A stretch of DNA of 64,000 bases from Candidatus Aenigmatarchaeota archaeon (lineage in GTDB: Archaea; Aenigmatarchaeota; Aenigmatarchaeia; JACPZZ01): NCBI GenBank assembly GCA_016195275.1, contig JACPZZ010000017.1, positions 21,581-85,580 of the forward strand, read 5' to 3'. Below are positions 15,749 through 56,733 of this stretch, in pieces. The position numbers were made by a program, and so were the translations under genes. Within the stretch, counting starts at the first letter, position 1, and each line of letters opens with the position of its first letter. The notes beneath the pieces were generated by a model. It did no database searches. It was given only the letters and a program-made list of their open reading frames with translations, and had not been told where the DNA came from.

Positions 15749-15850
15749 AGAATTGAACAATTGTCTACCTTACGTGCGTACTTGCTTGAGCAAGTCGCGT
15801 AGGAGGCGAGGTAGAGTCATCATTCCTATTGGCGCTGTCGGCTCATAAGT

Positions 15851-17334: not shown

Positions 17335-17335
17335 G

Positions 17336-18178: not shown

Positions 18179-18850
18179 CAGAGAACAGTGTCATGTCTCT
18201 AGACGACGATGTCCGTGGTGTTGGGTATGGGAGCACCAACCGAACCTTGTTATCACACTCCACGGGACCTATTTTACCCAGGGACGCCGGGCTTATCAGC
18301 ATGAGCCCATCATTGGCAATGATGACACTGGAGTTCAAAACCGTACTAACGGTCCCAACTCGACTCCTCAGCAATCTTAAGCCATTCGCGGTGACGCCGA
18401 ACAAGGTTAGGTACGCAAGGATTGACCCTTAGCAGCATTTCTACTGTGGATATACAACGTTCTCAGCAAAGACAACCGCCGTACCAGCAAGGGCTAGCAG
18501 AGCGGCAGTAGCGATGGCAATCCACTTTACGACAACCGGACGAACTTTGCGCATTTGGTTACACCTCCTAATGTTCTTAGGCAAAAACTAACAGGAGGCA
18601 GTAACCATTCGGTAACCAGGTTCAAAGGACAGTCGTGTGCGGAGAGGGCGCAGAATAGGGATTTAGCGGTCCAGACTGCGCCTTACGGTCTCCATAGGTG
18701 ACCACAGAGGCGGTTGGCAAAAAGGCAGGTGTCATGAAGCTCTACTATCTGATAACTGCCGCAAGGAGGAGACTGTGAAACGACCCAAGATAGATAGCCA
18801 AAGGAAATGAAAGTGGAGGATGTACAAGGAGGTCTGTGAACGCAGTCTAG

Positions 18851-21800
18851 CTACGCGGGTGGGGCTTTTGTTAATGCCTGATTGTAGAGGGACAGAAAAT
18901 GGGCTGGGACACTGATACCCAGCTCTGTACGGGCAGCCTTAATGTAGCGCTCCAGATATTTCAGTGATCCGAACCGGTCTCCTAATTTCAGACAAGTCTC
19001 TGCTAGTAGATAATTTGCTTCCTCATTATAGGGGTCCGACTCGACGAGCTTTTCCAGTACCTCAACAGATCGACCCAACTCACCTCTAGCGGTATAGTAT
19101 TTGGCAACGTTCATAAGTGCACGAATGTATTTTATCTCTAGAGAAGTACGTAAACTTTGACACCAGTCTGAGTAGAATTCATTCAGGAAAGGACCTATGT
19201 ACATCTCCATTGCCCTGAGCAGATTCTCCTCTTTGACAGGGCTTTCTTCCTCACATCGCTCAGCAGTCCTTAGGCTTTCTTCAAAGACCTCAAGGTCGAA
19301 ATCTACAGGGCTCTCGGGATTGAAGCAGTATCCATCACCTTTTGAGAGCACGCACCCTGGATAAAGAGCTTGTCTAAGGCGATAGATATTCATCTTTGAT
19401 GCAGCCGCAAAGTTCTCAAGGGTAACATCCGGCCATAGAGCTTCGATGATCTCCTCCTTGGTCACCACTCTTTTGGTACAAAGGAGAAAGTAGAAGAGTT
19501 CCTTGGCCTTGCGGCTTCTCCATTCGGAATCTGTTACCTCGTGTTTGCCCAGGAAAACACTGGCTTGCCCAAAGCTAAAGACCTTCAACGGAGGCAGCGA
19601 TCTCTGAGCAGGAGACGTAGTTCTGTCCGGCTCTGTCAGTTGTGCTCTTTCACTCATTCGTCTCGCTAGTCTCGTGAAAACTCCACCTGCCCCCTTTGCT
19701 GCACCGAATTGAACAAGCTCTGAAACCTGAGCACCATCTGCCAAAAGGAAACCCTCGTAACCGAGTCTTTGCGTGATGTGGTCAAGTTCTCGTAGGCAGA
19801 CTAGGGCTTCCCGAACTTGAGTCAGTTTATAAAAGACAAGTCCCTGGTGCAGTTTTGCCTCTGCCAGGCCCCTTTGACTTCCTACCTCACCGAACATCGC
19901 CTTTGCATCCCCTAGATGCTCTGTAGCCTCTTCAAACGAGCCCATCTGGCAATACACTTTGCCAAGCGAGAGGTGATAGCGAGCGCAGATGTATCTTTCC
20001 CCCGATTGCTCGGCATCGGGAATAGCTTGTTGTAATAACGCCTCAGCTTTGGATAACTCGCCTAAATCTCGATAAGTGTTTCCAAGGCCGTTCACAGCTT
20101 CAGCGATAAGTCGCTGGTCAAGAATGCTCCGGGCCATCTCTAGCCCTTCCAGGAGGCTCGTCAAGGCATCATGGTGGAGCCCGTTAGCTCTCTGCATGAT
20201 CCCTCTGGTGATCAGGACAAAAGCCTGCGTCCAACGTTCTCCAACGGCACGCGCTACTTTGAGAGCTTCGGTAATCTCATCGAGGGCAATATCGAAGTCC
20301 CCTAAATAGTAGTAGACATTGGCGAGGTTATTAAGGGTTAACGGCAAAGCGGTGTTGTTCTCCAGCTTCAACCAGCCCTGTCGTGCCTTCTCTAGATACA
20401 TAGATGCTTTATTCAGTTCTCCTGTCTCGATGTGTACAGCAGCTAGGCCATCATTTATCGTAGAAATGAGCGGCAGATTCTGCTGCGGAGCAATGTTTGA
20501 GGCCAACTCGAAATATTCTTTCGCTCGTTGAAATTCGCCTAGGCCAGCCAGGGCGCTGGCGAGCTGGCGATACGCTTCCGACAGATCCTCTGCCCTTGCA
20601 TTATGTGATCTCAGCACTGCGATGCCCTGCTCCGCTATTTTGACGGCAGCATCAAGCCTTCCCAGAGCCCTGGAAGCAGACGCCTTGTGGACCAGCACCC
20701 GTCCGGCGGTTGCCCAATCGTTTCCCTCTGCTATTGCAGTAGCTTTATCGAATTCTTCCATTGCCCGGGCAGGGTCGCCTGACCTGAGTAACACTGCCCC
20801 TCTAACCATCAGGATATGGGGGTCCCTCTCAGACAACTCGCGAGGAAGGAGATCTAGCCAGGCAGTCAGGGTCTGCCACTTTCGTTCCTGAAGGTATCTG
20901 TCAGCCACCTGTCTGATTATTTGGGCCGCCCCTTCTGCTTCGCCAGCCTTTGTCAGATGTCTGATAGCTGCATCGTGGTTTCCCACCTGCTGGAACAGGG
21001 AGCCTGCTCTCTGGTTAAACGCCTTATATGACTCAGGTTTCTCACTACTGAACTTCCTTTCCAGATATTCCCTGAAAAGGTCATGGTACCTGTAAACCGA
21101 GTCTTCACTGCCACGTTCCTCAAGGAACAGGCCTCTCTCTTTTATCTCGTGGATCAACTGACTGGAATGAGCTAGGTTAAGCAGATTGTCACAGAGCCTC
21201 ACACTGAACTCTTTCAGGATGGACGTTTGCAGAAGGAAAGATTTGAGACGTTCGGGAAGCCCATTGAAAACTTCCTGGGTCAAGTAATCGAAGAAGACAC
21301 TTTCATTGAGGCTGGCTAAAGTCGGCGATAGAGCGTCTCTTGAGCGTGTCCTGGCGGTCAGCAATACACCTGTGACCCAGCCACCAGTACGCGTGGCTAC
21401 TTCTTGAGCTTCTTCTGTTGGCACGGACCTTTCCCAGACACTGGATAGGGCTTCAGCGATTTCTTCCACAGAAAGGCGCAGAGTCTCGTTATCAAGCCAG
21501 GAGACGTCATCTTGGGCTACAAGTTTAGGTAGACAACTAATAGACGGCTTTGTTCTGCTTGCAATGAGGAAGTGGACATTGGACGGGGAACGCTCTATGA
21601 GTAAAGACAGAGCTTCTTTCAATGCTGACTTTGTATCTATGTGGTGTACGTCATCAAATATGAAGAGTAATTTGCCCTCAACCTTGTTATGAAACGCAGT
21701 TACCAGCAGGCCAACCAGGGTGCGCCAATCTGCCGTGGACGTTCGTATGAGCCAATTCACATCCCCTTTATTACCATCCTTAAACCGACTTTCAAGGGTT

Positions 21801-22057
21801 CTTACACAATATCGGAGAAACTCTAGAGGTTCATTGTCTTCAGGAGTAAAGGAGTACCAGCACACCGGAAAATCTGAATCTGAGATAAAGTCCACGAGTA
21901 GAGTTGTTTTTCCGTAGCCAGCAGGTGCCCAGAGAATCTGAACTCTTCTGTCGAGACCTGATTTTACAATATCAAGCGGCTTCGTCCGGCGGATAATACC
22001 TTCCCGCCGCTTCGGTATAAGGATCTTCGTGATGAACGGTAAATCAGTGGTTATCAA
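18851..22057 (-). CDS. MalT-like STAND ATPase - TPR repeats - C-terminal SARP module (OmpR-type wHTH plus BTAD)
   Basis: 1068 aa; N-terminal Walker A ILWAPAGYGKTTLL as in MalT/LAL regulators; extensive TPR-like helical repeats; C-terminal LKVFSFGQASVFLGKHEVTDSEW...LWPD (trans_reg_C) plus a BTAD-like helical tail. Confidence 0.75.
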   Translation of the reverse strand: MITTDLPFITKILIPKRREGIIRRTKPLDIVKSGLDRRVQILWAPAGYGKTTLLVDFISDSDFPVCWYSFTPEDNEPLEFLRYCVRTLESRFKDGNKGDVNWLIRTSTADWRTLVGLLVTAFHNKVEGKLLFIFDDVHHIDTKSALKEALSLLIERSPSNVHFLIASRTKPSISCLPKLVAQDDVSWLDNETLRLSVEEIAEALSSVWERSVPTEEAQEVATRTGGWVTGVLLTARTRSRDALSPTLASLNESVFFDYLTQEVFNGLPERLKSFLLQTSILKEFSVRLCDNLLNLAHSSQLIHEIKERGLFLEERGSEDSVYRYHDLFREYLERKFSSEKPESYKAFNQRAGSLFQQVGNHDAAIRHLTKAGEAEGAAQIIRQVADRYLQERKWQTLTAWLDLLPRELSERDPHILMVRGAVLLRSGDPARAMEEFDKATAIAEGNDWATAGRVLVHKASASRALGRLDAAVKIAEQGIAVLRSHNARAEDLSEAYRQLASALAGLGEFQRAKEYFELASNIAPQQNLPLISTINDGLAAVHIETGELNKASMYLEKARQGWLKLENNTALPLTLNNLANVYYYLGDFDIALDEITEALKVARAVGERWTQAFVLITRGIMQRANGLHHDALTSLLEGLEMARSILDQRLIAEAVNGLGNTYRDLGELSKAEALLQQAIPDAEQSGERYICARYHLSLGKVYCQMGSFEEATEHLGDAKAMFGEVGSQRGLAEAKLHQGLVFYKLTQVREALVCLRELDHITQRLGYEGFLLADGAQVSELVQFGAAKGAGGVFTRLARRMSERAQLTEPDRTTSPAQRSLPPLKVFSFGQASVFLGKHEVTDSEWRSRKAKELFYFLLCTKRVVTKEEIIEALWPDVTLENFAAASKMNIYRLRQALYPGCVLSKGDGYCFNPESPVDFDLEVFEESLRTAERCEEESPVKEENLLRAMEMYIGPFLNEFYSDWCQSLRTSLEIKYIRALMNVAKYYTARGELGRSVEVLEKLVESDPYNEEANYLLAETCLKLGDRFGSLKYLERYIKAARTELGISVPAHFLSLYNQALTKAPPA

Positions 22058-27739: not shown

Positions 27740-29899
27740 TCACAGAAGGCTCACATTGAAGGGTGGCGGCGAGAGGTAGAAATCGAGAAGCGTGCTGAAC
27801 CGCACGTGGCGCAAGTCCTCGCCGCTGAGACGCTTGCTGGCAAGCTCCTTGATGGACTGCAAGTGCTTTTCGCCCTCGGCCAGGACGAACACGACATCGC
27901 AGAACTTCAAGTCAGCCTGGATGTTGCGCAGCTCGTCCTCTGGCCGGGTCGTCTCGGAAATCTCGGTGCCGATCACTTGGTTCTCAATCCGAGCCAGCAC
28001 GTCAACAGCCTTCCCTGTCGTCTGGTCCTCGATAGTGACGTTGGCGTTCGGCAGCGACGCGGTGATGCGTTCCGCGATCTTGTGCTGCCAGAACTGATGG
28101 ATGAAGGAACCGCGGCCTGATGGCCGTTTAGCCTTGCGCTTGTACTGCTCAAGCAGCGCCCATCCCTTGTCTGTGACTTCGATCAGCTTGGTCGGGCTGC
28201 CACGCCTCACCAAACGGACCTGGTACTCTCGGATCAGGCCCAACTTACCCAGCTTGTCGCGCCGGCCATTGCCTGCCCCATGAGAAACACCTAGTCTCGT
28301 GTCTCTATCTGTGGCCGCTTCGAATGGGGTTGCTGCTATGTCTTGAAGATAGTCGAGCAAGGTGGAATCCATCGACCGGTCTACGTATTGGCTCTCCTGT
28401 TCGCCTTTCTCGTCGCGCGCAGGCTCTCCGTTGACCGCAGCATCGCCTTCCTTATGGTGTGCTTCGTTGCGTGCAGCAGGCGTGGTTCCGTTTCGGGCTG
28501 ACGCTGGTGTCCACTTCAAGGCCGCGAGTATGGCTTTCATCATTTCGGCGATCTGCTCCTCTGTGACAGGAATGTTGAAGCTAATTTCCGGCATCCTGAC
28601 CAGGAAAGGCTTCGCGACCTCCGGGTGGCGCATCATCGCAAATCTCATAGGTAGTTCTTGAAACAGCCGCGCCTGCTCCAACGTCAGCGAGTGGTCGCTG
28701 GCGATCCGCTTGATTGACTCCCCATCTGTTGTGCCGTAATACAAATGGGTCGCCGAGTTGCCGCTAATTACCGAAGGAAGGTCCTTCGCCTCCTGGGTCG
28801 TTGTGACAACCCCCAGTTTGCGTTTCCGGCCCGTACGAACCGTGTCAAAAAGCAGCGGCTCCCCAAGGATCGTCTCAGCATGTCCCGCTGATTTCACGAA
28901 GCGATGCCCTTCCTCCAGGAAGAGGACGTTGCGAAGGTCCGCGTCGCCGAGCTTGGCCTTGTAGTCATCGAACGCAGTGAGCAGCTCAATCGGAAAGAAC
29001 ACTCTGGTGTCCGAAGCCATGCCTTGAAGGTTGAACACCCATGAGCGGTGCGCAAGCTCTCCGAACGAAAAACCCTCAAGCGCGTCGTAAGTTCCGGCCA
29101 GGTGAAGCACTAACCCCGTGAAGCGGTTGATAAGTCCTTCGAGATATTGCGCACGTCGCATGTCAACGGCCCGGTTCATCTTCGCCCGGCGACGCACCAG
29201 TTCCTCGTGGAACTCCCTCACTGTGAATACGCCCTGCCGCTGGTACATCTCGAACCCGATCTCAGTCCCCAGGTTGACGCCACCGTCCCCTACCCAGACC
29301 TCCCTGTCGATGTCCCGCATCCGCGCATCCACATCCGCAAACGATTCGCCAGGCAAAGGCTCGAACAGGTTGCGCTTGAACTGGCCCTCTTTGATCGTGC
29401 AGCGCACAATTCGGCCAGGTGGGGCGTAGGCCGGCAGGTCCCAGACCTCGTTCTCCGAGTCAAGGAAAATGAAATGGTCGCCAAGCTGCTCAAGCTGTAG
29501 CGCCAACGACCTATTCGTAACGGACTTCCCAGTGCCGGGCGCACCCACGTTCACAACGTGGCGGTCGAAATGCTCTCGCTTAAGAAAGACCGGAAAGCCA
29601 AGGGACCAGTCCGGGTTGACGACATAGCCGACCAGAATGTCCCCGACCACGGCTTCGGGCGGCGGCACATCAAAGGGATGAGGCGGTCGATCCGAATTAA
29701 ACGGGCGCATCATATTGACCACCTGAATGACTGGTCTCCAGTTGCCCGTTCTGAGCGCAAGGTTGAAGAACGAGAGGACGCGCGGGTCATGGTCCAGGCC
29801 AGCAACGTGGATGAGCTCCATGACTTGCTGCACGTCGTTGTGTTGGGGTGCATGACCGACGCTCCTCAAAGTAGCCATCAGTCGCAACGTCCTTTGCAA
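27740..29899 (-). CDS. FtsK/HerA/TraG-superfamily P-loop ATPase (DUF87-like) with C-terminal wHTH and additional domain
   Basis: 719 aa; Walker A VNVGAPGTGKSV, Walker B-like FIFLDSEN, VVTTTQEAKDL...HLYYGTTD region as in HerA/VirD4-type ATPases; C-terminal LGKLGLIREYQVRLVRRG wHTH-like segment; last gene of a 7-gene operon. Confidence 0.7.
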   Translation of the reverse strand: MQRTLRLMATLRSVGHAPQHNDVQQVMELIHVAGLDHDPRVLSFFNLALRTGNWRPVIQVVNMMRPFNSDRPPHPFDVPPPEAVVGDILVGYVVNPDWSLGFPVFLKREHFDRHVVNVGAPGTGKSVTNRSLALQLEQLGDHFIFLDSENEVWDLPAYAPPGRIVRCTIKEGQFKRNLFEPLPGESFADVDARMRDIDREVWVGDGGVNLGTEIGFEMYQRQGVFTVREFHEELVRRRAKMNRAVDMRRAQYLEGLINRFTGLVLHLAGTYDALEGFSFGELAHRSWVFNLQGMASDTRVFFPIELLTAFDDYKAKLGDADLRNVLFLEEGHRFVKSAGHAETILGEPLLFDTVRTGRKRKLGVVTTTQEAKDLPSVISGNSATHLYYGTTDGESIKRIASDHSLTLEQARLFQELPMRFAMMRHPEVAKPFLVRMPEISFNIPVTEEQIAEMMKAILAALKWTPASARNGTTPAARNEAHHKEGDAAVNGEPARDEKGEQESQYVDRSMDSTLLDYLQDIAATPFEAATDRDTRLGVSHGAGNGRRDKLGKLGLIREYQVRLVRRGSPTKLIEVTDKGWALLEQYKRKAKRPSGRGSFIHQFWQHKIAERITASLPNANVTIEDQTTGKAVDVLARIENQVIGTEISETTRPEDELRNIQADLKFCDVVFVLAEGEKHLQSIKELASKRLSGEDLRHVRFSTLLDFYLSPPPFNVSLL

Positions 29900-32408: not shown

Positions 32409-35400
32409 ATGGCAAGCCAAGGTCGTCCTCACACCAGAGCTCCGTGGAAAGACAAGATCCTGATTTGGCAGGAATACTATAGGAACCGAGTCATTAAACG
32501 AGTGGCTGAGGACCTCAGCTTCCAAAAGGCGGATGGCGAATGGTATGGCTATAGCGAGGACACCGTAGCAAGAATAATCAAGGAGTTGGACTACATCTCC
32601 GAAGAAGATGCGGCGAGTCTGTCATCAGAGATTCAAGAACTCAGACGTAGCCGTACACAGGCACCAAACCAACAGGCGTCGCCACAACAAATCGGTCAAC
32701 AATCAGACTACAAAGTTGATTTGCAAGCACTCCGGCAGTCTTGTTCGGATGGGCTCAGGGCTCACCTTGATCGGCATTCGGTAGAGTTTAATAGCAAAAG
32801 CTACGTACCACGCGCCGCCATTGAAGGGGAATTCCGCGAGTTCTTAGATTCGACAAAGCTTTGTTTTCCCATCATTGGCGAAGCAGGCATGGGCAAGACA
32901 ACTTTGCTTTGCCATTTAGCAGACGAGTACTCGCATAGAACCGAACAGCACCCAGACCATTTAGTTTGGGTGTTGTCCGCGAGACCGCTGGCCAATATTC
33001 GCGATCACCCGTTGCGTACGGCGGTAGGCGAGGAAGCGACGGACGTGGGAGCTGCGATCAAGAGCCACCTCTCACGGCACCTCAGCATGGTCGATGTCAC
33101 TAAGAGATCAGAGGTTGACTTCACGGAGGTCGTGGAAGCTCTCTATCGTGAGTTAAGAGACACCGGCGACAAGAAGTTCATCGTGTTAATCGACGCGCTG
33201 AACGAACACCCCCAGGCTGACAAGCTAATTGCATCGCTGGACTCAGCGGTGGCAAGCCTCGCGGACCTCTCCGATGAACTCGATGGCCTCTCAAGGCGCT
33301 TCAAGATCTGTGTGACGTGCCGACCATATTCGTGGCACCGGGCTATCAGCGAAGAACTCCATAGCAGGATCAGGTATTCCCATTATCATGCCCTGCAAGA
33401 GCAGAACTTATTGCCCCAAGTGACTCTTGGAGAATACTCAGAGCAGGAGCTTCAAACGATTTACGAAGGGACAAAGGTTATCACAGACGATGGGAGACGA
33501 TCGGAGTTGCGCCCGGAGTTCACAGCCTTGAAAAGGGACGCCCCCAAGTGGATCAATCGACTATCCGACCCCTACCTGTTCGCCTGCGCGATAGAGGTGG
33601 CAAGGAAGAATGACGGTTATATCCCTCTAGGCTTAACCAAGGCTCAAATGCTGAGAGCCTATATCGACCGGCTGACCAACAATGACAAAGTAGCGCAGAG
33701 ACTCCTCGCGGAAATAACAGAGCGCATGCGGGTGACCATGAGTCCCCAACTGACTCGGCGCGAATTGGAGAGTTGCGCGCAAAGGCTCACCTTGGACCTC
33801 GATGCTCCTGACTCCCCCTATAACCGTCTGATAGATGCAGGAATTCTCCAAGAGTTGAACGATGCGACGAACGACCCGACCCAACTAGCGGTGGGTATCC
33901 GCAACGACCGCATCCTGGAGTACCTCTTGTATGAGCGTCTCAAGCTGCTTCAGCAAGATGTTACGCACATCCGCGATACGCTGATACAAGCGGAATTGTA
34001 CCCTCAGTTGTGGGCTGCCTTGCATACCCTATTCGTTGAAGACTGGGATCAAGCCACCGTTAGTCAACTGGCCGCCATCCGCAACGAGGACCAAACGGCC
34101 CCCGTCGTTGTTCGGGCCTTTATTCCAGGCGTATGTCGCGAAGTGTACAAAGACCGGCCGAAGGAGGTGAATGACCTCGTCCAGACTCTCTTGAAGTCGA
34201 GCGACAATGTGGCATTGATGATGGCAGTGGCGGTTGCCTATACTGTCAAGGACACGGACGGTCTGCTTCAAGCGTTGCAAAACAAGAGCTTAGTTGCACA
34301 GAGACTGGCCATCCAATACTCGTATCTTTTTTGGCGGGCTCACCGTAAGAATGGCTACGCCCTGTTAAACAGATTAAGTGACCGAATATCCGTGGCACCT
34401 GATAGGAAAACAATCCAAGCGTTCGTTGACCTTAGCGTGGCGATCGGAACCAAGCATTTTCGACAACCAGAAATCCGAGAGGAAATTATTGCACTGGCAC
34501 AACGCACGGCTCACGGGTTGATGCACCCCGATCTGAGGAAATCCGGGTTGAATCCCGCCCAGAGGATGAAGAGGCGAGCCGCTAGCTTAATCCTTCGAGC
34601 ATCAACGTCGTTTGCCGGTGGTCCTCTCGTCAATGCAGCGGCTGTTTACTTGGAGAAAACGCTCCGTGTCGCCGAGGACAACAACACCATAGGTAACTAT
34701 TCGGACGTAGCCGCCTTCTTCAAACACGTGCCGCCCCGCGATAGACACCCATATAAAGTGCTGTTGAATTTTTGGGGGCCAGAAGAAGCCAATCTCGTTA
34801 AATTGCGAAACATCATTTGTGATTTGGCGCACAGGCAAGATGGTGTGTTCTACTCCCTCGCAGCCGGGGCTTTGGTCATCCAAGCCTACTATCGACCCGA
34901 AGCTGCACTCAAGATGTTCAATGAGGTTTACGATAGTGCCGAGCAGAATGCGCTTCAAAAACGGCTGGTGCTACGGGCGTCCGATGTCTTGTCTCCACTG
35001 GCCAGCGGAAAGCATCTGAACTCCCAACTCCGGTCCCACAGCGACCTAGTCCGGAGGTTCATCGATGAAACAGCAGGCCGGTGCACCGTGGCAGGCCACA
35101 ATCGGACCATGTGCGGAGTACCGCTTTATCACACTTCGTTAGTAGAAGTTTCTTCACGCGGTAGCTTGACTATCCTGCCCGACGCTATTACTAAAGCTCT
35201 GGTACGGAATGACCCCGAGCTGCTCGTGTCATTAGCTGAAGTTATTAACCAAATGGTCTGGTATATTGAGCCAGAACGCGTCCTCTCACTCAGGGAGTCA
35301 CTGCTTTGGCTACTCGCTTACGGGGACAATCCCCAAGGGAACGTGTACCAAGCTGCGCTGCGCACCGTTGCCACCTTAGCTCTGATATATCCGGATGCAG

Positions 35401-35675
35401 GTGAAGACGTCATTGCAGCAATCGCCAACAAAGAGGAACGGCAACGAGTCAGGAGCGGACTCAAACGCATTGCGGCGGACGAATTGGTCACCCCCGTGAG
35501 CGTTTACTTGGGCGGGATGCACGATGCGGGCATATATACGCTGCTTTCGTCTGACGGTGACGCAGTACGACGATTAGTCGTCGAGATATTGAACGCCGGA
35601 TTGAACGAGAAAACCGTACATGGTCTCATGCGGCTAGTTGCGCGTAGGAGCCTTAAACTATTGCAAGCTACGTAG
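32409..35675 (+). CDS. NACHT-like STAND NTPase with long C-terminal HEAT/ARM-like helical repeat region
   Basis: 1088 aa; about 150-aa N-terminal region, Walker A CFPIIGEAGMGKTTLLCHL, Walker B FIVLIDALNE; more than 600 aa of helical repeats. Confidence 0.75.
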   Translation: MASQGRPHTRAPWKDKILIWQEYYRNRVIKRVAEDLSFQKADGEWYGYSEDTVARIIKELDYISEEDAASLSSEIQELRRSRTQAPNQQASPQQIGQQSDYKVDLQALRQSCSDGLRAHLDRHSVEFNSKSYVPRAAIEGEFREFLDSTKLCFPIIGEAGMGKTTLLCHLADEYSHRTEQHPDHLVWVLSARPLANIRDHPLRTAVGEEATDVGAAIKSHLSRHLSMVDVTKRSEVDFTEVVEALYRELRDTGDKKFIVLIDALNEHPQADKLIASLDSAVASLADLSDELDGLSRRFKICVTCRPYSWHRAISEELHSRIRYSHYHALQEQNLLPQVTLGEYSEQELQTIYEGTKVITDDGRRSELRPEFTALKRDAPKWINRLSDPYLFACAIEVARKNDGYIPLGLTKAQMLRAYIDRLTNNDKVAQRLLAEITERMRVTMSPQLTRRELESCAQRLTLDLDAPDSPYNRLIDAGILQELNDATNDPTQLAVGIRNDRILEYLLYERLKLLQQDVTHIRDTLIQAELYPQLWAALHTLFVEDWDQATVSQLAAIRNEDQTAPVVVRAFIPGVCREVYKDRPKEVNDLVQTLLKSSDNVALMMAVAVAYTVKDTDGLLQALQNKSLVAQRLAIQYSYLFWRAHRKNGYALLNRLSDRISVAPDRKTIQAFVDLSVAIGTKHFRQPEIREEIIALAQRTAHGLMHPDLRKSGLNPAQRMKRRAASLILRASTSFAGGPLVNAAAVYLEKTLRVAEDNNTIGNYSDVAAFFKHVPPRDRHPYKVLLNFWGPEEANLVKLRNIICDLAHRQDGVFYSLAAGALVIQAYYRPEAALKMFNEVYDSAEQNALQKRLVLRASDVLSPLASGKHLNSQLRSHSDLVRRFIDETAGRCTVAGHNRTMCGVPLYHTSLVEVSSRGSLTILPDAITKALVRNDPELLVSLAEVINQMVWYIEPERVLSLRESLLWLLAYGDNPQGNVYQAALRTVATLALIYPDAGEDVIAAIANKEERQRVRSGLKRIAADELVTPVSVYLGGMHDAGIYTLLSSDGDAVRRLVVEILNAGLNEKTVHGLMRLVARRSLKLLQAT

Positions 35676-43968: not shown

Positions 43969-45015
43969 TCACCCTTCCTTCTTAACTCTCAACAGCCTGA
44001 TGTTACCCCTCATGTCCGCGCGCTCGCTCTCGATCAGTCCCACCGAGATTAAAGTTGCCACATACGCGGAAAATGTGCGCGAGGCGACCGGCCTCTTGCC
44101 AATATCCGAGCAATGCCTCAAGTAACCTTGCCACAACGTGTTGGAAAGCATACCTTCAGATCCTGAACCTTTGATTAGCTCGAATATGGCCCTGTGGTGC
44201 TCGGTCAGGCTCTGGAGCAGGTAACGCTGCTCCAGTTCTCTGGCAGACGTGAATCCTGACTCAACGTGTTGCGCCAGGATGACCCGGCTTCTGTCGGATT
44301 CAGCCAGCTCCGCAGCGTTGTTCAAGGTTTGAATCGCTACTCTGGCATCGCCGTCGGATAGCGATGCGATCCTGCCCAGCGTTTCCTGATCCCAGGAACC
44401 GGAAACAAGCGCTTCCCTTGCCCTCTGCTCAACCATGCCTACAAGCTCTTCGGCACTGTACGGCTCGAAAGCGATCTGCCTTAACGCAACCCTTGATAAA
44501 ACCCTCGGGTCCACATTCATCAAAAAGTAGCGCGAATTACAGATGGCGACCAACCCTACGCTGCCGATCCTTGCAAGGTTGTAGAGAATGGCATTTCTCT
44601 CTTTCGGGGCGGGTTTGTCTATCTCGTCCAGGACGATGACGAAAGGTTTGTTGCCGATGCTCCTTTCAAAGCGTTCCAGCTTCAAAGCCGCCTCGGTTTT
44701 GTCGGCGAACATGATGCGAAGCTCTTTGACAATCTCATCAGCCACCAGGTACAGGGAGTTGTGCTTCCACCAGTTTATGTAAACAGATTGGATAGGAGAC
44801 TCTCGCCTCAGGCGTTGCAGGGCCCACCGGGCCACAGCGGTCTTGCCTGTTCCAGGATTACCGTACAGCCAGATATTAACAGGCTTCCGGTGTTTCAATG
44901 CCGGAGCGAGGCGTAGATTAAGCTGATGGATTTGCTCCTCCCTGCCTGACAAGGACGCCGGCATATATTCTTCTGAAAGGACCGCAGGCTCCCTGATGAT
45001 GCGAATCTCTTCCAT
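43969..45015 (-). CDS. Orc1/Cdc6-family AAA+ replication initiator with C-terminal winged helix
   Basis: 348 aa; Walker A LYGNPGTGKTAVA, Walker B VVLDEIDK, sensor ICNSRYF, C-terminal wH; archaeal plasmid/virus-type initiator. Confidence 0.85.
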   Translation of the reverse strand: MEEIRIIREPAVLSEEYMPASLSGREEQIHQLNLRLAPALKHRKPVNIWLYGNPGTGKTAVARWALQRLRRESPIQSVYINWWKHNSLYLVADEIVKELRIMFADKTEAALKLERFERSIGNKPFVIVLDEIDKPAPKERNAILYNLARIGSVGLVAICNSRYFLMNVDPRVLSRVALRQIAFEPYSAEELVGMVEQRAREALVSGSWDQETLGRIASLSDGDARVAIQTLNNAAELAESDRSRVILAQHVESGFTSARELEQRYLLQSLTEHHRAIFELIKGSGSEGMLSNTLWQGYLRHCSDIGKRPVASRTFSAYVATLISVGLIESERADMRGNIRLLRVKKEG

Positions 45016-48534: not shown

Positions 48535-49109
48535 GCGTTACACTCCGATGGCTTAGAGTCCTCCCTCGCCCACGCCGCGGTCTATGGACCGCCCTTTAGA
48601 GTAAAGACTAGGCGACCCACAGTCCGGTGAACGAACACAACCTTGAGACAGTAACGTTCGGTGTGGAAAACACCACCACCCTTAACTGATACGCTCAACT
48701 GTCTGCCTCCCGTTGTTCTTCCCAGAGTACCCTAATAAACGAGGGAGAAGCCCTTCTCATGCGGTACATTGCTCTCCCAAAACTATCGCGTCTGGTAGGT
48801 CACTATGGCAACTCACTAAAGTTGCTCCAACAGAAATATCTGGAGCGGATTGGCACTGTCACGATCCTGGCCTGACCGTCACCTCTGTAAAACACGCCAG
48901 GGCCGGAACCTTGCGTCGTGTGACACCTCAGCGCCAGCCCGCGTTCGCCCCCAAGCCCACTATTGTCGTCCAAGTACCCCACCTTAGTATAGTCGACCAG
49001 TATTTCCGTGTCAATACTTTGAATCTCCCCTAATGATACATTGGTGCAATTCTCACGGAACACCAGATGCAACCCCGAGGCAACAATAGTGTTCTAACCT
49101 GCTGGATCA

Positions 49110-50372
49110 TCAACTTGCAAATGCCACAGTGAACATGTCGGATTGGAAACTACGACTTCCAACCCACGCTCGAATGCACACTTTTTGCTCCCCTATGGCA
49201 AGTCTTTTCGGTATCTGGAAGTAAACCGTGTGAGTCTCAACGTCGCTTATCACATAAGTAGGCAAGGCCAATGTGTCCAGCCAGTTTCCCCTAATGAAGA
49301 CCTGTACCCTTTGCAGTTGCGATGGCTGCGATACCCTAAAGGTCACTACCACCGCCAAGTTTATGTCATGGGTGGTCTCACTAAGACCGCCAATGGCTGG
49401 GTTCCCGCCCGAAAGCAGCATATATCTTTGAACTTCGACCTCCAGAGAGCCTTGTTCCCGGTCCGCCAATTCTTCATTGGGCGGCCGAAGAATTTGTCGT
49501 GTTACCCTGCCTCCAGGCAACACTCTAACCTTGTCACCAGTGTCTTCCTGCATTCCATCGGGGAACTTACCTCGCAATGTTAGCTTCGTAAGAAACACCC
49601 GGACGAAAGTCGCTGCTACACCCGCCGCGTAGTGTCTCCATAGAGCCCTCTGTTCAGACGCGCCCAAGCCTGCTCCGTCAGACGTCAAACCGGGCACGTC
49701 AGAAATACCACGTATCATCAGGGCTCCGATCGACTGCTTTGACTGAGTAAGACGTATCGCTGAACCTACGCCAGTACCCTCCATCTCGATCGCGTCGGCT
49801 TCAGGAATCCCCTTCCTCAGATCCTGAACAAGGGGATAGTTAAGGTCGTCGACAGTTGCGTTGATGGAAACTACATATCCACTGTCTACTTTGGGAGTTC
49901 GCTTTTCTTCCGGCTTCGGCCAAGCTATCCCCACGTTATCCACCCATTCCGGACTCATTTTAGCTATGAGCTCCGCGTGTTCTAGCAGAGTTCTGTCAGG
50001 CCTCCAATCTTGGTCAGGCCTTCTCTTGAAGCTCCCGCCAATTATTTTCCCGACCACGCCATACACATTGCTGGCGATTATAACGTCCCCATGACGAAAT
50101 TTACCATCTGGAAAGCCTCCAGCGATACCGACGATGAGCACCCACCTGGGTTCAAACGTTGTGATAACCTGTTGCAATGACGACGCGGCGTTCTCCTGAT
50201 ATTTACCCACCTGCACACAGACTACCTGGAACTTCCCAATTTGGCCTCGCTTGGCGGGGAGGAGTTGATCTATAGGATCGAATGAATGGCCTAGTTGGCT
50301 AGCCATCGCAGCCCATTCCTCAGGCAAAGGGCACGCGAGCAAGAAGTCCACTGAGCTATGATCACTGCTCAT
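49110..50372 (-). CDS. PNP/MTAN-family (PNP_UDP_1) nucleosidase/phosphorylase domain fused to about 180-aa unknown C-terminal domain
   Basis: 420 aa; LIVGIAGGFPDG, AIEMEGTGVG, MIRGISDVPG, the three signature blocks of the MTA/SAH nucleosidase/purine nucleoside phosphorylase fold; C-terminal beta-rich domain without matches. Confidence 0.7.
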   Translation of the reverse strand: MSSDHSSVDFLLACPLPEEWAAMASQLGHSFDPIDQLLPAKRGQIGKFQVVCVQVGKYQENAASSLQQVITTFEPRWVLIVGIAGGFPDGKFRHGDVIIASNVYGVVGKIIGGSFKRRPDQDWRPDRTLLEHAELIAKMSPEWVDNVGIAWPKPEEKRTPKVDSGYVVSINATVDDLNYPLVQDLRKGIPEADAIEMEGTGVGSAIRLTQSKQSIGALMIRGISDVPGLTSDGAGLGASEQRALWRHYAAGVAATFVRVFLTKLTLRGKFPDGMQEDTGDKVRVLPGGRVTRQILRPPNEELADREQGSLEVEVQRYMLLSGGNPAIGGLSETTHDINLAVVVTFRVSQPSQLQRVQVFIRGNWLDTLALPTYVISDVETHTVYFQIPKRLAIGEQKVCIRAWVGSRSFQSDMFTVAFAS

Positions 50373-50701
50373 AGGGACACCTCCTAATGTTCGCTACGCT
50401 ACTGGTGGCCCAATCCTACATGTGGCCTGGCTCCGAGTCAAGAATCCTGGCCTGGAGTGCGTCTCACCATTCGATGACAAAATACCCAACTGGAGCGGCG
50501 TCAGTAGTTACCTCGTGCCCAACTGCATTCACCCTGATGGCGATCTCAGCGGCAAACCGAGAGCCCGATGCAGTTGTGGCTGACCGCACGTGGGGCTAGT
50601 TAGAAAGTCCCCTTCGTCTTCGGATCAGCCATATCTTCCTCTGCCGCATGAAATAGTCGATTGCGGCAATTATACTCTCTCTGGCCTGCGGCTTCATCAC
50701 C

Positions 50702-50920
50702 TCAACCACTACAACCCCCTGCCTCTGCCCAGCCGCAACGCACAAACTGCACGATCCCGCAATGCTCCAACAGCGTCGCATCGTGCGCACTGCTGTAAAC
50801 GAGTCGTATTCCGGCGGCACCGCAGAAACCGCACCACACCCGACCGTCTCCGGTCCTCTTGCACCTCGGCAATACCTGAACCATCGCCCGGCCGTTGATC
50901 GTGACCACGCTGTCGCTCAT
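50702..50920 (-). CDS. small Cys-containing protein (cassette copy 2, gene B)
   Basis: About 72 aa from MSDSVVTINGRAMVQVLPRCKRTGDGRVWCGFC...; paralog of 36341-36577. Confidence 0.45.
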   Translation of the reverse strand: MSDSVVTINGRAMVQVLPRCKRTGDGRVWCGFCGAAGIRLVYSSAHDATLLEHCGIVQFVRCGWAEAGGCSG

Positions 50921-53718: not shown

Positions 53719-54714
53719 ATGCTTATGGACGCAGCAAGTGCTCTCAAACTCTTTAATGAGAAGGCAAAGAAGTTAGAAGGCCTCAGCTTCACAAAAATGC
53801 TGGCTGAACAGAAAACAGGCGTCACGCTCTCAGGGAAACAAGGGCATCCTTTAACCATAGAGCGCTCCGGCCCCGGCGATGAAGCCATAGATGCTTTCGT
53901 ACTTACACTGAGATTCTTCGTCCAGGACAACGAAAGTATATCACTGAGGAATTTCGCACATCTTTACGCGGGTCTACCTGTTGATCAGGAACTGATTGAC
54001 AACTTCAACGCTGCCAGGGACGCCTTGAACAGCTTTCTCGACAACAAGCCGCTCGTCGTTGTCCTTGATGAGATCGACAAGGCCCAGCCCAAGGACCAGA
54101 GCTCCATCCTCTACACGCTTTCGGAGCTTGAGAACGCAGGAGTCGTTTGCATTTCCAACAGCCGCGCGACCCTTCTGTCTCTTGATGACAGGGTGAAGTC
54201 GCGGCTGAACTCAGTCTTCATCGGCTTCGACCCGTACAACAATGATGAACTTCGACGCATCCTCGAGGCCAGGGCAGGGCACGCGCTCTTTCCTGGCTGT
54301 TTTGTGCCGGAGATTCTTGACCGGATTGCCGGACTTTCTGGTGGCGATGCCCGTGTCGCAATTCAAACGCTGAGACAGGCCGCGCAGCTAGCCGAGGTCC
54401 AGGGCACCCGCACCATCGCTGCTGACCACATCGAGCACGGCGTTGTCACCGTGCGCACCCTGCGGACCCAGTATGCCCTGAACAAGCTGACTGAGCATCA
54501 CCGCATACTGTTCACTATCGTCTCCTCTGCCCGTGAGATCACGAACATCGCGCTGTGGGTAGCCTACATCGAGAAATGCAAGGAGACGAGCAAGACTCCG
54601 ATTGCTGATCGCACGTTTCGGGCCTATCTGAATACCCTGGTCTCGCAGGGCCTCGTGTTGAGGGAGCGCTTGGCCGAGCCTGGCGCTCTGTTCCGTTTCC
54701 GGCCGTGCGCGTGA
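53719..54714 (+). CDS. Orc1/Cdc6-like protein lacking the Walker A P-loop (degenerate paralog)
   Basis: 331 aa; Walker B VVVLDEIDKAQPKDQSSILYTL, sensor ISNSRATLL, GGDARVAIQTL and C-terminal wH all align to Cdc6; no GxxGxGKT, and an in-frame stop lies just upstream of the ATG. Confidence 0.6.
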   Translation: MLMDAASALKLFNEKAKKLEGLSFTKMLAEQKTGVTLSGKQGHPLTIERSGPGDEAIDAFVLTLRFFVQDNESISLRNFAHLYAGLPVDQELIDNFNAARDALNSFLDNKPLVVVLDEIDKAQPKDQSSILYTLSELENAGVVCISNSRATLLSLDDRVKSRLNSVFIGFDPYNNDELRRILEARAGHALFPGCFVPEILDRIAGLSGGDARVAIQTLRQAAQLAEVQGTRTIAADHIEHGVVTVRTLRTQYALNKLTEHHRILFTIVSSAREITNIALWVAYIEKCKETSKTPIADRTFRAYLNTLVSQGLVLRERLAEPGALFRFRPCA

Positions 54715-55382: not shown

Positions 55383-56582
55383 TTAAGCCTTCAACAGTTT
55401 CGTCTTCAGAATCTCTTCTACGCGCACCTCTATCATCTTGTCGATCATTTCGGGTGTCAGGAGTTTTAGCACCTGCTGCTCTCTGTCCTCCAACTCAAAC
55501 AGACCCTTCACCGAGATCGCTCTGCTGCACTGGACACAAAAATCCGCACTTAGCGAGTTTTCAGTTTTGCAGAACGTGCAAACCGTAGTGCTAACGACCC
55601 CGAGGGCACGCTTCTCTCGCTGTTCGATTGAGTGCTGTTTCAATACATACTCCTCAACTTGCTTCTCTGCCAGGTGTTCATAGAATCTGAATGCCTTGCT
55701 TTCTACCGAGTGCCCTACGAGTTTCTTTATCATTATCTCGTTCCATCCAGCTTCGAGCAGATGTGTGATCCTGCTGTGCCGTAGAAGATAGGAGTACACT
55801 CGCTTCTCCATACCTAACTTTTTGGCCGTCCTCTTGAGAGTGACGTTGAATCCCTCCGGTTGTAGAAACTGCTTGGTTAGGTAGCTCACATAGCTTGACG
55901 GAAAGAGAGGCGCATTCTGATCGCGCCTCAATGGGTGGACGTTGAGCCAAGCCCTCAAATAGCGATCAGAGTCCATTGCGAAGATCGTCCTCGTGAAAGT
56001 CTTGCTCTCCCGCAAGAAAATCCTTGTGTACCCTTCTGTGGATTTGAGACTTCCAACAGTAAGGGTGAGCAACTCCGATGGTCTTGCTGCGGTTTCATAC
56101 GCAAGCGCAAAAAGACATTTGTACATCGGACTGTGGACCGCGTTAACAAGTTGTTCCACTTCATCCTTGGTTAGCAGGTCGTTGTAGGTGATATCGAATT
56201 TCCTCGGCCCGTTTCTTTTCGTCTTGATCCAACGATATTTCTCAGGATTGAAGCTGTCACCCAGAACAAATTTCAGGAGTCGCTTCACCGCAATCTTGTA
56301 GTCATTCATTGTCCATGCCGCAAGACCTCGCGCGGTGATTTGCGCGAGTGCCGCCTCAATATCTCGGTTGTCGAGGTCGGCGTAGTCTTTCTTCATGGCA
56401 ATGGTGAGGTCGCGTAGGAGGATCAGATACTTCTTGATGCGGCCAAGAGAGATGCCTTCGGCGCGGAGCCTCTGTGCAAAGGCTGCCAGGGTCTCTGCGT
56501 TGTTGGGCGAGATTTCCGGCATGACGCGAATCTGGCACAGCACACGCTCGTAATCCTTGTTGCTCCTATAGAACGAATCCAT
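55383..56582 (-). CDS. int: tyrosine recombinase / integrase with C-terminal zinc ribbon
   Basis: 399 aa; N-terminal SAM-like core-binding domain, catalytic region with LRHSRITHLL (HxxR) and downstream Tyr; C-terminal CTFCKTEN...CVQC; adjacent to tRNA-Thr/attR. Confidence 0.85.
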   Translation of the reverse strand: MDSFYRSNKDYERVLCQIRVMPEISPNNAETLAAFAQRLRAEGISLGRIKKYLILLRDLTIAMKKDYADLDNRDIEAALAQITARGLAAWTMNDYKIAVKRLLKFVLGDSFNPEKYRWIKTKRNGPRKFDITYNDLLTKDEVEQLVNAVHSPMYKCLFALAYETAARPSELLTLTVGSLKSTEGYTRIFLRESKTFTRTIFAMDSDRYLRAWLNVHPLRRDQNAPLFPSSYVSYLTKQFLQPEGFNVTLKRTAKKLGMEKRVYSYLLRHSRITHLLEAGWNEIMIKKLVGHSVESKAFRFYEHLAEKQVEEYVLKQHSIEQREKRALGVVSTTVCTFCKTENSLSADFCVQCSRAISVKGLFELEDREQQVLKLLTPEMIDKMIEVRVEEILKTKLLKA

Positions 56583-56630
56583 GCAATTACATGGGTCAGT
56601 CTGCTAATAAAAGATATACACTTGTTCAAA

Positions 56631-56651
56631 GCCTCAGGCGAGAATTGAACT
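56631..56651. repeat. attR: 21-bp direct repeat agcctcaggcgagaattgaac within the tRNA-Thr 3' end
   Basis: Identical to 15728-15748. Confidence 0.75.
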
Positions 56652-56733
56652 CGCGACCTTTACCTTACCAAGGTTTAGCGACAAACTTCGCTTGGAAATT
56701 CGTTAACGCTCTACCAACTGAGCTACTGAGGCG
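56631..56733 (-). tRNA. tRNA-Thr(GGU) with about 30-nt non-canonical intron in the 5' strand of the anticodon stem
   Basis: Hand-folded: acceptor GCCTCAG/CTGAGGC, D-arm GCTC-AGTTGGTA-GAGC, exon junction TTA|...|CC restoring anticodon stem TTACC/GGTAA, loop TTGGTAA (anticodon GGT), variable AGGTC, T-arm GCGAG-TTCAATT-CTCGC, discriminator U. Intron position 28/29 or 29/30, ambiguous by one A. Confidence 0.65.

Follow-up and report, generated by a model that had tools for sequence, protein, structure and literature searches.

A gene of an Aenigmarchaeota archaeon, lying in the window analyzed here (the whole stretch of DNA, 64,000 nucleotides long), raises the question of what a PNP-type nucleosidase does when it is joined to a second, unfamiliar domain and carried by a mobile element. 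One subfamily of PNP_UDP_1 enzymes splits adenine off ATP and dATP, leaving (deoxy)ribose-5'-triphosphate, is toxic as an isolated domain, and is antiviral (Rousset et al. 2023, bioRxiv 10.1101/2023.01.24.525353). The published biochemistry spans CBASS, Detocs, fungal NLR, and sponge death-domain members, all of which cleave both ATP and dATP, and fusion of this effector to variable partners, in archaea as well, is likewise already on record (Table S4 of the same work). The first-pass annotation had set the gene beside these ATP-degrading effectors. Here we ask whether it belongs with them or with the housekeeping nucleosidases, and what its second domain may contribute.

The gene and its PNP domain

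The gene is a single, uninterrupted ORF (Table 1), and its product is identical to the NCBI entry "hypothetical protein HY051_02945" of Candidatus Aenigmarchaeota archaeon. The ORF is real, and AGGAGGTG is the ribosome-binding site ahead of its ATG. The protein is a singleton, with one cluster member from one population. Non-coding spacers of ~550 bp, which are unusually long, lie on both sides of the gene, and the immediate flanking genes encode unknown proteins of 556 aa and 163 aa. Pfam scans of the short ORFs in both spacers returned no match. An ORF of 86/89 aa at 48803-49072 was considered as a gene and rejected: it was predicted by one gene caller, but had no Pfam match or upstream ribosome-binding site, and had no counterpart at any fetched locus. 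The spacers, together with the lack of conserved neighbors, fit a single-gene system and fit an orphaned fragment equally well.

Table 1. Positions in the window of the gene, its domains and key residues, and the features of the surrounding element.
Feature	Position	Strand	Basis or remark
Complete ORF	49110-50372	-	420 aa plus stop; NCBI identity
Shine-Dalgarno-like site, AGGAGGTG	50378-50385	-	5 nt upstream of ATG; read from the sequence
PNP/MTAN-fold nucleosidase domain, aa 8-265	49578-50351	-	Pfam, AF2, Foldseek, PADLOC
Glu19 codon	50316-50318	-	counterpart of Glu12 in E. coli MtnN; 90/95 relatives have Glu, the remaining 5 are gaps
Loop aa 104-119, YGVVGKIIGGSFKRRP	50016-50063	-	alignment and column counts
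Glu198 codon (IEMEG)	49779-49781	-	aligned with MtnN Glu174; invariant, 95/95 relatives
Asp225 codon (RGISD)	49698-49700	-	aligned with MtnN Asp197, Cap17 Asp472, DtcC Asp353
Linker, low-confidence, probably flexible, aa 266-283	49524-49577	-	AF2 pLDDT about 41
Orphan C-terminal domain, predicted all-beta, aa 284-420	49113-49523	-	8-10 predicted strands; weakly Ig-like sandwich
Left att copy, 22-nt direct repeat	15737-15758	.	left end of the 40.9-kb element
MalT-like STAND	18851-22057		no recognized effector domain
NACHT STAND NTPase	32409-35675	opposite to PNP gene	no recognized effector domain
Tyrosine integrase of the element	55383-56582	-	Pfam Phage_integrase, E = 4.5e-22; adjoins the tRNA gene
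Right att copy, 22-nt direct repeat, AAGCCTCAGGCGAGAATTGAAC	56629-56650	.	overlaps the tRNA 3' end
Intron-containing tRNA gene, integration target	56630-56732	-	Rfam RF00005, 52.9 bits

The N-terminal part of the protein matches Pfam PF01048 (PNP_UDP_1) over aa 13-243 at a level far beyond chance (E = 9e-10; 38.7 bits against a cut-off of 25.1 bits), and its AF2 model has a pLDDT above 90 across aa 10-265. Foldseek aligns this model with MTAN structures (E = 4e-17, TM 0.88 normalized to the target), which are the top matches among solved structures. The last helix of the fold (aa 238-263) falls outside the Pfam envelope. All three signature motifs quoted in the first-pass annotation are in place, as LIVGIAGG (aa 78-85), IEMEGTGVG (aa 195-203), and IRGISD (aa 220-225), and the comparison that it had proposed, of predicted structure and active site with MtnN and DtcC, yields a PNP/MTAN fold with aligned catalytic residues. 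As judged from the alignment, the catalytic Glu19, Glu198, and Asp225 are all intact and (near-)invariant; mutation of the Asp aligned with Asp225 abolishes activity in both Cap17 and DtcC (Rousset et al. 2023).

The loop at aa 104-119 occupies, in the alignment, the place of the 5'-alkylthio-binding loop of MtnN. Its pattern, Y-x-Y-x-x-G-K...F-x-x-R-P, is common to HY051_02945, Cap17, DtcC, and the relatives, whereas MtnN has a different loop, gapped at positions 115-118. Among 95 relatives, K109 is kept in 70, F115 in 65, R118 in 87, and P119 in 73. From this pattern we infer that the loop may have a triphosphate-binding role.

Placement among immune and housekeeping nucleosidases

We compared the protein with profiles of both classes of enzyme. 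The equivalog models for MtnN and futalosine hydrolase were all missed (44 vs 169, 18 vs 73.8, and 36 vs 124.7 bits), among them the curated MtnN/Pfs equivalogs NF004079 (44.1 vs 169 bits) and TIGR01704 (18 vs 73.8 bits), even though an MtnN equivalog is the top NCBIfam match below its cut-off. The PADLOC Cap17 model PDLC00759, which scores 854 bits against the real Cap17, matches HY051_02945 with E = 2e-9 and 34 bits over profile positions 303-479, corresponding to the PNP part only; PADLOC PDC-M60C matches as well. Because HY051_02945 scores similarly against the MtnN equivalog (44 bits) and the Cap17 profile (34 bits), the two cannot be told apart by such scores alone. The name "MTA/SAH nucleosidase" carries no weight either, since PGAP gives it to Cap17 itself.

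Direct comparisons point to the immune side. In pairwise phmmer searches HY051_02945 scored 29.8 bits with Cap17, 12.1 bits with DtcC, and 8.2 bits with MtnN. In a neighbor-joining tree, a crude one whose five housekeeping outgroups all come from E. coli, the protein and Cap17 were separated from those five PNP-family enzymes in 89 of 100 replicates, and a subgroup of the protein with P0013 and P0008 was recovered in 93 of 100; support was weak at the deep nodes (48% for the clade as a whole with Cap17 in it, 46% for the grouping with DtcC of V. alginolyticus). By this tree and the phmmer scores the protein clusters with Cap17 and DtcC, apart from the housekeeping DeoD, Udp, XapA, and MtnN. 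Nor does it have the profile of a core or salvage MtnN, a single domain of ~230 aa: it has 420 aa and an extra domain, and its gene lies in an integrated element.

Closest to it, at 35-46% identity (E = 1e-32 to 1e-68), are fusion proteins with a PNP module. Their partners are NB-ARC or nSTAND plus TPR (P0008, L017, L018), AAA (P0014), an NBR1-type Ig domain (P0002), and a receiver domain (P0013), the last in a Detocs-like operon that encodes, in this order, a large HATPase_c protein, REC, and REC-PNP. In more distant relatives the PNP module is joined to TIR, EAD, and SAVED domains. All 20 of the genomic relatives are bacterial, most with long partner domains; IMG/VR held no viral relative, and there was no PHROG match.

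The missed equivalogs and the fusions of the relatives both argue that the PNP domain sides with Cap17/DtcC-type nucleosidases and not with housekeeping MtnN/Pfs, so the nearness to ATP-degrading effectors first proposed for it holds. The outcome that had been named as refuting that proposal, firm placement with MtnN and an extension common to its clade, is not what we found: the cut-offs were missed and the extension is unique. On these sequence comparisons, HY051_02945 adds one more member, of unusual build, to the known clade of antiviral effectors that cleave ATP (Cap17/DtcC).

An orphan C-terminal domain

The extra C-terminal part that the first-pass annotation had described is present, but its size, given there as ~180 aa, comes down to about 155 aa (the linker and an all-beta region of ~135 aa), because the last PNP helix lies past the Pfam envelope. 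Its beta-rich character is predicted as well, on the basis of low-confidence AF2 models alone (pLDDT 40-77). Modeled by itself, the domain has a mean pLDDT of 61 and a pTM of 0.58, and two independent AF2 runs predict a beta sandwich. Foldseek searches of the PDB and BFVD with this domain returned generic Ig-like sandwiches only (best E = 2e-3, TM ≤ 0.5), and the predicted fold is weakly Ig-like.

An exhaustive phmmer search of 1.84e9 representative proteins for a homolog of the domain returned only the protein itself. There was no Pfam match at E ≤ 10, sequence comparison with the PDB yielded noise only, the best tblastn match in the remainder of the window and in a set of fetched loci, 27 of them around PNP homologs, was no better than E = 0.3, and BLASTP detected no similarity to the NBR1-Ig tail of P0002. 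Neither a P-loop nor a TPR was detected by Pfam scans of aa 266-420. Across these searches the C-terminal extension is unique to HY051_02945. The C-terminal domain is genuine coding sequence, since its codon-position GC equals that of the PNP part, its frame is free of internal stops (the two alternative frames have 7 and 10), and AF2 predicted the beta sandwich twice.

The integrated element and its cargo

That the gene is island-borne is borne out by a 22-nt direct repeat matching a tRNA 3' end, an adjoining integrase, and a 40.9-kb element of higher GC whose ends are formed by the repeat (Table 1). The target tRNA gene was missed by ARAGORN. The element had been called defense-rich, a description that stands in moderate form: it carries the NACHT STAND NTPase (a weak Avs2-like match), an AbiEii-like nucleotidyltransferase, and a type II-like methyltransferase, but the other cargo serves replication, recombination, and transposition. 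None of these defense-type genes is adjacent to the PNP gene. The element has a single HK/REC pair, at 16963-18178, which is 31 kb from the PNP gene.

Pfam scans of the neighboring ORFs agree with the first-pass annotation that the PNP gene does not sit among purine or methionine-salvage genes. The co-conserved neighbors that were also sought did not emerge: o89, the genes for 556, 135, 229, and 163 aa, and the spacer ORFs have no counterpart near any PNP homolog. The 556-aa and 135-aa genes are kept as a pair on the sole other contig carrying them (2.9 kb); no PNP gene lies on that contig, whose sequence upstream of the two genes is limited to about 620 nt. Around the PNP gene, a search for cassette-like repeats gave only 14-18-nt matches at chance level.

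Comparison with characterized systems

Cap17 (TPALS-PNP, type III CBASS, E. coli KTE188; Rousset et al. 2023) belongs to the same PNP subfamily by pairwise score, neighbor-joining, and PADLOC, with the catalytic Glu/Glu/Asp (D225 corresponding to Cap17 D472) and the F-x-x-R-P loop in both proteins. Both have two domains; in the Cap17 type the enzymatic domain is toxic and joined to a controlling domain, and by analogy HY051_02945 may be built likewise. In Cap17 the PNP domain is C-terminal, the N-terminal TPALS/SLOG domain is predicted to bind a cyclic oligonucleotide, and a CD-NTase is adjacent, whereas in HY051_02945 the PNP domain is N-terminal and its partner is the orphan, predicted beta sandwich. 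Pfam scans detected no TPALS/SLOG or SAVED domain in the protein and no CD-NTase in any scanned ORF. DtcC, the receiver-PNP response regulator of Detocs in V. alginolyticus (Rousset et al. 2023), belongs to the same clade and keeps the catalytic Asp (D353), and the Detocs-like P0013 (REC-PNP) is among the closest relatives (E = 2e-32). Unlike DtcC, HY051_02945 has no Response_reg domain, and its gene has no adjacent kinase or buffer receiver.

NLR-like/Avs STAND proteins with an N-terminal PNP domain, found in bacteria, archaea, and fungi, share with HY051_02945 the order of a PNP domain followed by a variable part, and the closest proteins by sequence are of this type (L017 and L018, 39-41% identity, and P0008). 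HY051_02945 differs from them in being without an NB-ARC/NACHT NTPase and without a TPR sensor. We considered it as a truncated NLR and rejected this, as tblastn of full-length homologs against 44-53 kb of the window recovered no STAND or TPR remnants. The best full-length analog is the uncharacterized P0002 type (PNP plus NBR1-like Ig, from a Chlorobiaceae MAG), with about 400 aa, an N-terminal PNP domain (43-46% identity), a short linker, and a C-terminal beta-sandwich of ~110 aa. The two tails are without sequence similarity, however, and P0002 is bacterial, its gene being followed by one for an alpha/beta-hydrolase. E. coli MtnN/Pfs shares the fold (Foldseek TM 0.82-0.88) and has its catalytic triad at equivalent positions; it is set apart by only 16-20% identity, the missed equivalogs, another 5'-substituent loop, and, on the side of HY051_02945, the extra domain and the lack of salvage context.

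Discussion

On balance, we consider it probable that the gene encodes a two-domain conflict-system PNP effector of the Cap17/DtcC clade, an autoinhibited (d)ATP nucleosidase carried as cargo on the 40.9-kb tRNA-integrated element of this Aenigmarchaeota archaeon. The best reading of the orphan domain would be a regulatory or sensor module of that enzyme, the sensor role being pure analogy. We infer substrate, autoinhibition, trigger, and defense role by analogy, as follows. The PNP domain (aa 8-265) would be an active N-glycosidase that, like the tested members of its clade, cleaves ATP and dATP, with adenine and, as the other product, (deoxy)ribose-5'-triphosphate set free. Since isolated PNP domains of the clade are toxic, the unique beta domain (aa 284-420) would act as a regulatory module that keeps the enzyme silent. 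A cue from a virus or rival element, either bound by the C-terminal domain or driving oligomerization, would cause that domain to free the enzyme, upon which the cell would lose its ATP pool and the invader's replication would be aborted. A bolder version, which we hold only tentatively and think rather unlikely, has the orphan beta-sandwich act as a receptor that directly recognizes some component of an archaeal virus or of a competing mobile element, and makes the protein a complete sense-and-kill system in one polypeptide, the first in a DPANN archaeon.

It is improbable that the protein instead works in trans, as the effector of a multi-gene system recruited or activated by an element protein such as the NACHT or MalT-like STAND, with the beta domain serving as a docking adaptor; this would be a split version of the PNP-NB-ARC-TPR fusions of its closest bacterial relatives. 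The direct fusion of PNP to NB-ARC or nSTAND plus TPR in those relatives is consistent with such a partnership, as are the separate nSTAND/AAA_35 gene that P0014 precedes and the two STAND NTPases of the element, both of which are without a recognized effector domain. With the STAND genes 13 and 27 kb off, however, and the NACHT gene in the opposite orientation, neither forms an operon with the PNP gene; moreover, the C-terminal domain has no sequence motif in common with other parts of the window, and pairing with a STAND is not conserved at the loci of PNP homologs.

We give little credence to a decaying remnant, that is, a PNP module that came from a bacterial fusion protein (NLR-like or other) and lost its partner, leaving the C-terminal 155 aa and the ~550-bp spacers as degenerate sequence. 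The wholly bacterial relatives with their mostly long partner domains, the absolute orphan status and low AF2 confidence of the C-terminal part, and the unusually long non-coding spacers beside the gene would suit such a history. Against it, the 420-codon frame is intact behind a strong ribosome-binding site, the catalytic and near-invariant residues are all kept, the C-terminal part has coding-like codon-position GC with other frames full of stops, and no trace of a STAND or other partner lies downstream. An unregulated PNP of this clade is toxic, and an intact catalytic domain should therefore not persist without control.

A metabolic role is very improbable. Dependence on salvage is presumed for DPANN archaea, and a nucleosidase carried as cargo could release adenine or ribose from MTA/SAH, adenosine, or AMP for a reduced cell, a reading with which the MTANs among solved structures and the MtnN equivalog as top NCBIfam match agree. 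Yet the protein scores far under every equivalog cut-off, has its affinities with Cap17 and with fusions built like immune proteins, and has a 5'-substituent loop unlike that of MtnN; its extra domain, mobile-element location, and lack of nearby salvage genes fit salvage poorly, and the PGAP name adds nothing. Scarcely any credence is due to a signal generator or counter-defense enzyme, whose released base or sugar-phosphate would be a second messenger, as predicted for the PNPase domains of ternary conflict systems by Kaur, Burroughs et al. (eLife 2020, with reference to Burroughs et al. 2015), or which would destroy adenine-containing immune signals of the host, as might suit a gene on a mobile element, for all tested clade members deplete ATP and dATP and are toxic by themselves, and Pfam scans detected no gene nearby whose product would receive such a signal or act on it.

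If the reading as an autoinhibited effector is wrong, HY051_02945 is one more uncharacterized family member with a lineage-specific tail, as is common in the clade. If it is right, an ATP-nucleosidase immune effector reaches the DPANN archaea, probably from a bacterial origin by way of an integrating element, and is tied there to a small, wholly new partner in place of SLOG/SAVED, a receiver, a STAND NTPase, or pAgo. Were the bolder version true, this 420-aa receptor-effector would represent the smallest mode of activation yet in the ATP-nucleosidase clade, doing without a STAND NTPase, a second messenger, or a phosphorelay, and ATP depletion would strike a DPANN cell that is thought to depend on its host for much of its metabolism. 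A toxic enzyme gated by a domain of 135 aa would be a small model system for the silencing and activation of such effectors, and the ligand of the C-terminal domain would point to a little-known molecular pattern of archaeal viruses or plasmids.

An intact nucleosidase domain joined to an orphan C-terminal domain

The gene is a single open frame (see table), preceded 5 nt 5' of its ATG by a ribosome-binding site, AGGAGGTG, read from the sequence. The encoded protein exactly matches NCBI "hypothetical protein HY051_02945" from a 123-kb contig of a Candidatus Aenigmarchaeota MAG and contains all three motifs quoted in the first-pass annotation. Pfam PNP_UDP_1 matches residues 13–243 over its gathering score (E = 9e-10), AlphaFold2 models residues 10–265 with pLDDT >90 from a 61-sequence alignment, and Foldseek aligns the model with crystal structures of MTA/SAH nucleosidases (E = 4e-17, TM 0.88 on target); on these grounds the nucleosidase domain is real and complete. 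Because the last helix (238–263) lies outside the Pfam envelope, we place the domain end at about residue 265, and the extra C-terminal part is therefore ~155 aa, not the ~180 aa originally proposed.

This part comprises a low-confidence linker (~266–283) and a ~135-aa region with 8–10 β strands predicted by AlphaFold2. When residues 270–420 were compared exhaustively by phmmer with 1.84 billion representative proteins, the query protein itself was the sole match, and the domain had no match in Pfam (E <= 10), among PDB sequences, or by tblastn elsewhere in the window or in loci surrounding PNP homologues. Its description as β-rich agrees with the all-β AlphaFold2 models, but these are of low confidence (pLDDT 40–77 at full length; mean 61, pTM 0.58 for the domain alone); Foldseek (PDB, BFVD) retrieved generic Ig-like sandwiches only (E >= 2e-3, TM <= 0.5). 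The region has the character of coding sequence: its codon-position GC (0.58/0.41/0.53) matches that of the PNP part (0.60/0.44/0.54), and translation in the two alternative frames meets 7 and 10 stops. We regard it as probably a β-sandwich domain that folds and is specific to this lineage.

Affinity of the PNP domain to ATP-cleaving effectors

A placement among housekeeping MtnN/Pfs enzymes, which would have counted against the first-pass annotation, is unsupported by equivalog scores, relatives, pairwise scores, tree or loop. The protein reaches 44 bits for the NCBIfam MtnN equivalog (169 needed), 18 for TIGR01704 (73.8 needed) and 36 for futalosine hydrolase (124.7 needed). Among 95 database relatives the match is confined to the PNP part (covering no more than 71% of the query), and these proteins are overwhelmingly multi-domain, carrying NACHT/NB-ARC, AAA_16/22, TIR, effector-associated domains and SAVED modules, as well as receiver, GUN4, CHASE2 and FGE-sulfatase modules. 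The closest share 35–46% identity; close relatives include a PNP-NB-ARC protein (P0008), PNP-NB-ARC/nSTAND-TPR proteins of Acidobacteriota (loci L017 and L018), a PNP-AAA protein followed by an nSTAND gene (P0014), a PNP protein with an NBR1-type Ig domain (P0002), and a receiver-PNP protein (P0013) whose operon has a Detocs-like layout (large HATPase_c protein, stand-alone receiver, receiver-PNP).

Pairwise phmmer scores were 29.8 bits to the CBASS effector Cap17, 12.1 to the Detocs effector DtcC and 8.2 to MtnN. In a crude neighbour-joining tree of 103 PNP domains (100 bootstrap replicates; few outgroups, all from E. coli), the query and Cap17 split from E. coli MtnN, DeoD, Udp, XapA and Amn in 89/100 replicates, and the query grouped with Detocs-like P0013 and NLR-like P0008 in 93/100; deep nodes were weak, at 48% for the whole clade and 46% for the grouping with V. 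alginolyticus DtcC. The PADLOC models for Cap17 (which gives 854 bits with real Cap17) and PDC-M60C both match the query, which reaches profile scores of comparable size with the MtnN and Cap17 models. RefSeq/PGAP names the characterised Cap17 (L008 2498–4015, E. coli EcPF14, NZ_CP054230.1) "5'-methylthioadenosine/S-adenosylhomocysteine nucleosidase"; this name is thus uninformative, and misleading on clade members, including several relatives of the query.

We aligned the PNP domain with E. coli MtnN (NC_000913), V. alginolyticus DtcC (Table S1 of Rousset et al.) and Cap17 of E. coli EcPF14, recovered via the cloned sequence in Table S8 of the same study. The catalytic residues all have counterparts: Glu19, Glu198 and Asp225 align with MtnN Glu12, Glu174 and Asp197, and Asp225 also with Cap17 Asp472 and DtcC Asp353, mutation of which abolishes ATP cleavage and defence (Rousset et al. 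2023). All three positions are invariant or nearly so among the 95 relatives. Past the GDV strand the query has a loop, Y-x-Y-x-x-G-K-...-F-x-x-R-P, found in most relatives (K109 in 70/95, F115 in 65/95, R118 in 87/95); Cap17 keeps its F, R and P, and DtcC its G-K, F and P, whereas MtnN has a different loop here, which holds the 5'-alkylthio group. The basic residues of the query loop may accommodate a triphosphate.

The gene lies on an integrated mobile element

The 22-nt sequence AAGCCTCAGGCGAGAATTGAAC occurs twice, and the two copies are the att sites bounding an integrated element of 40.9 kb (GC 50–60%, against 43–47% in the flanks). The right copy coincides with the 3' terminus of a tRNA that contains an intron and is directly adjoined by a tyrosine integrase. 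These features and the cargo confirm the proposed mobile element. Another tRNA-like gene, with a weaker score, is found within the element close to its left end.

Features of the nucleosidase gene, its surroundings and the element (window coordinates)
Feature	Position	Strand	Details
Nucleosidase gene	49110–50372	-	420 codons, uninterrupted
Left 22-nt repeat	15737–15758
Right 22-nt repeat	56629–56650
Intron-containing tRNA	56630–56732	-	Rfam 52.9 bits; missed by ARAGORN
tRNA-like gene (Gly-GCC)	15879–15953		Rfam 35.6 bits
Receiver + HATPase_c histidine kinase pair, MalT-like protein	16963–22057	-
HerA/VirB4-like ATPase	27740–29899	-	719 aa; weak AAA_10, HerA, mad8 matches
NACHT STAND NTPase	32409–35675	+	1088 aa; weak Avs2-like match
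Orc1/Cdc6-like gene	43969–45015	-
Orc1/Cdc6-like gene	53719–54714	+
Gene pair, 556 and 135 aa	46454–48534	-	2 nt apart; next downstream of nucleosidase gene
Downstream spacer	48535–49109		575 bp
Upstream spacer	50373–50916		544 bp
Large serine recombinase
DDE transposase
AbiEii-like nucleotidyltransferase
N4/N6 DNA methyltransferase

The label "defence-rich" is only moderately true: the NACHT STAND, AbiEii-like and methyltransferase genes fit it, but other cargo is of recombination or replication type. The NACHT protein is without recognised effector or sensor domains; the MalT-like STAND (1068 aa, ATPase-TPR-BTAD) scores 235 bits to the MalT model across its first 420 aa. The receiver/kinase pair and STAND genes on this archaeal element are bacterial-type. 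The HerA/VirB4-like ATPase also weakly matches a PHROG terminase large subunit and could serve as a motor for conjugation or packaging; no capsid gene was found among the proteins scanned. The 331-aa Orc1/Cdc6-like protein matches the lid and distal AAA part only; since no match precedes ~aa 88, its N-terminal part may have diverged, or a normal Walker A region may be missing.

Close relatives of the PNP module occur at 20 genome loci (L016–L035), all of them bacterial and none archaeal (Chlorobiaceae, Acidobacteriota, Chloroflexota, Gammaproteobacteria, Actinomycetota). Together with the GC difference between element and flanks, this suggests that the PNP module reached the Aenigmarchaeota element by inter-domain transfer.

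Neighbours and proposed mechanism

The spacers flanking the gene are unusually long and apparently non-coding: Rfam gave no match at its gathering threshold, repeats were not significant, and none of the ORFs has a domain or a homologue. Promoter or regulatory sequence could be located there, as could decayed genes or an unannotated RNA. An 86/89-aa ORF just 3' of the gene, called by one gene caller, has no Pfam match, upstream ribosome-binding site or counterpart in the loci compared. The downstream gene pair recurs on the sole other contig with a homologue (L036 622–2702; 44% and 30% identity); the PNP gene is absent from that 2.9-kb contig, which spans only ~620 nt upstream of the pair. Both proteins lack known domains, save that the larger one (556 aa) ends in a sub-threshold DUF5678 match, and no link to the PNP gene was found. 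The co-conserved neighbours sought after the first-pass annotation did not emerge: none of the gene's neighbours in the window recurs in the vicinity of a PNP homologue. Co-conservation therefore yields no partner, nor can it, because the query protein is a singleton.

That the protein acts in trans, as effector for either STAND NTPase of the element, is plausible but of low probability, those genes being unlinked to it. Less probable still is that a larger fusion is decaying and has left this remnant: the frame, ribosome-binding site and catalytic residues are intact, the coding signature persists, and no STAND or TPR partner remnants were found downstream. A salvage enzyme is quite improbable, opposed by clade placement and context, and least probable is a signal generator or counter-defence enzyme, as predicted by Kaur et al. 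(2020), which has no local support.

Rousset et al. (2023) tested PNP domains of four proteins: CBASS Cap17, Detocs DtcC, an NLR from a fungus and a death-domain protein from a sponge. All of these cleave ATP and dATP, and in isolation their PNP domains are toxic. Given clade membership and intact catalytic residues, our best guess is that the query shares their chemistry and would cleave ATP/dATP. The C-terminal domain is the best candidate for restraining the enzyme until a cue triggers it, and the protein would then have a putative antiviral role.

Relation to known PNP effectors

PNPase effectors with many fused partner domains have been described since 2015–2020 (Kaur et al. 2020), and Rousset et al. 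(2023) demonstrated that they act as ATP nucleosidases. Cap17 proper, DtcC and the PNP-NLR proteins each have the effector domain in common with the query, which lacks their defining architectures. The sole parallel to its compact ~400-aa layout of PNP plus one β-sandwich is the P0002 type, of putative function, whose Ig domain shows no similarity to the C-terminal domain by BLASTP. In the accessible part of Table S4 of Rousset et al., at least about 13 members are archaeal; they belong to Euryarchaeota and Crenarchaeota, many lack an assigned context, and no DPANN member is among these entries. New in the query are the absolute-orphan partner domain, this compact layout and the DPANN host. 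Specialists would expect fusions of this sort to exist; this one makes testable how a toxic enzyme could be gated by a small domain that is neither an NTPase nor signal-binding.
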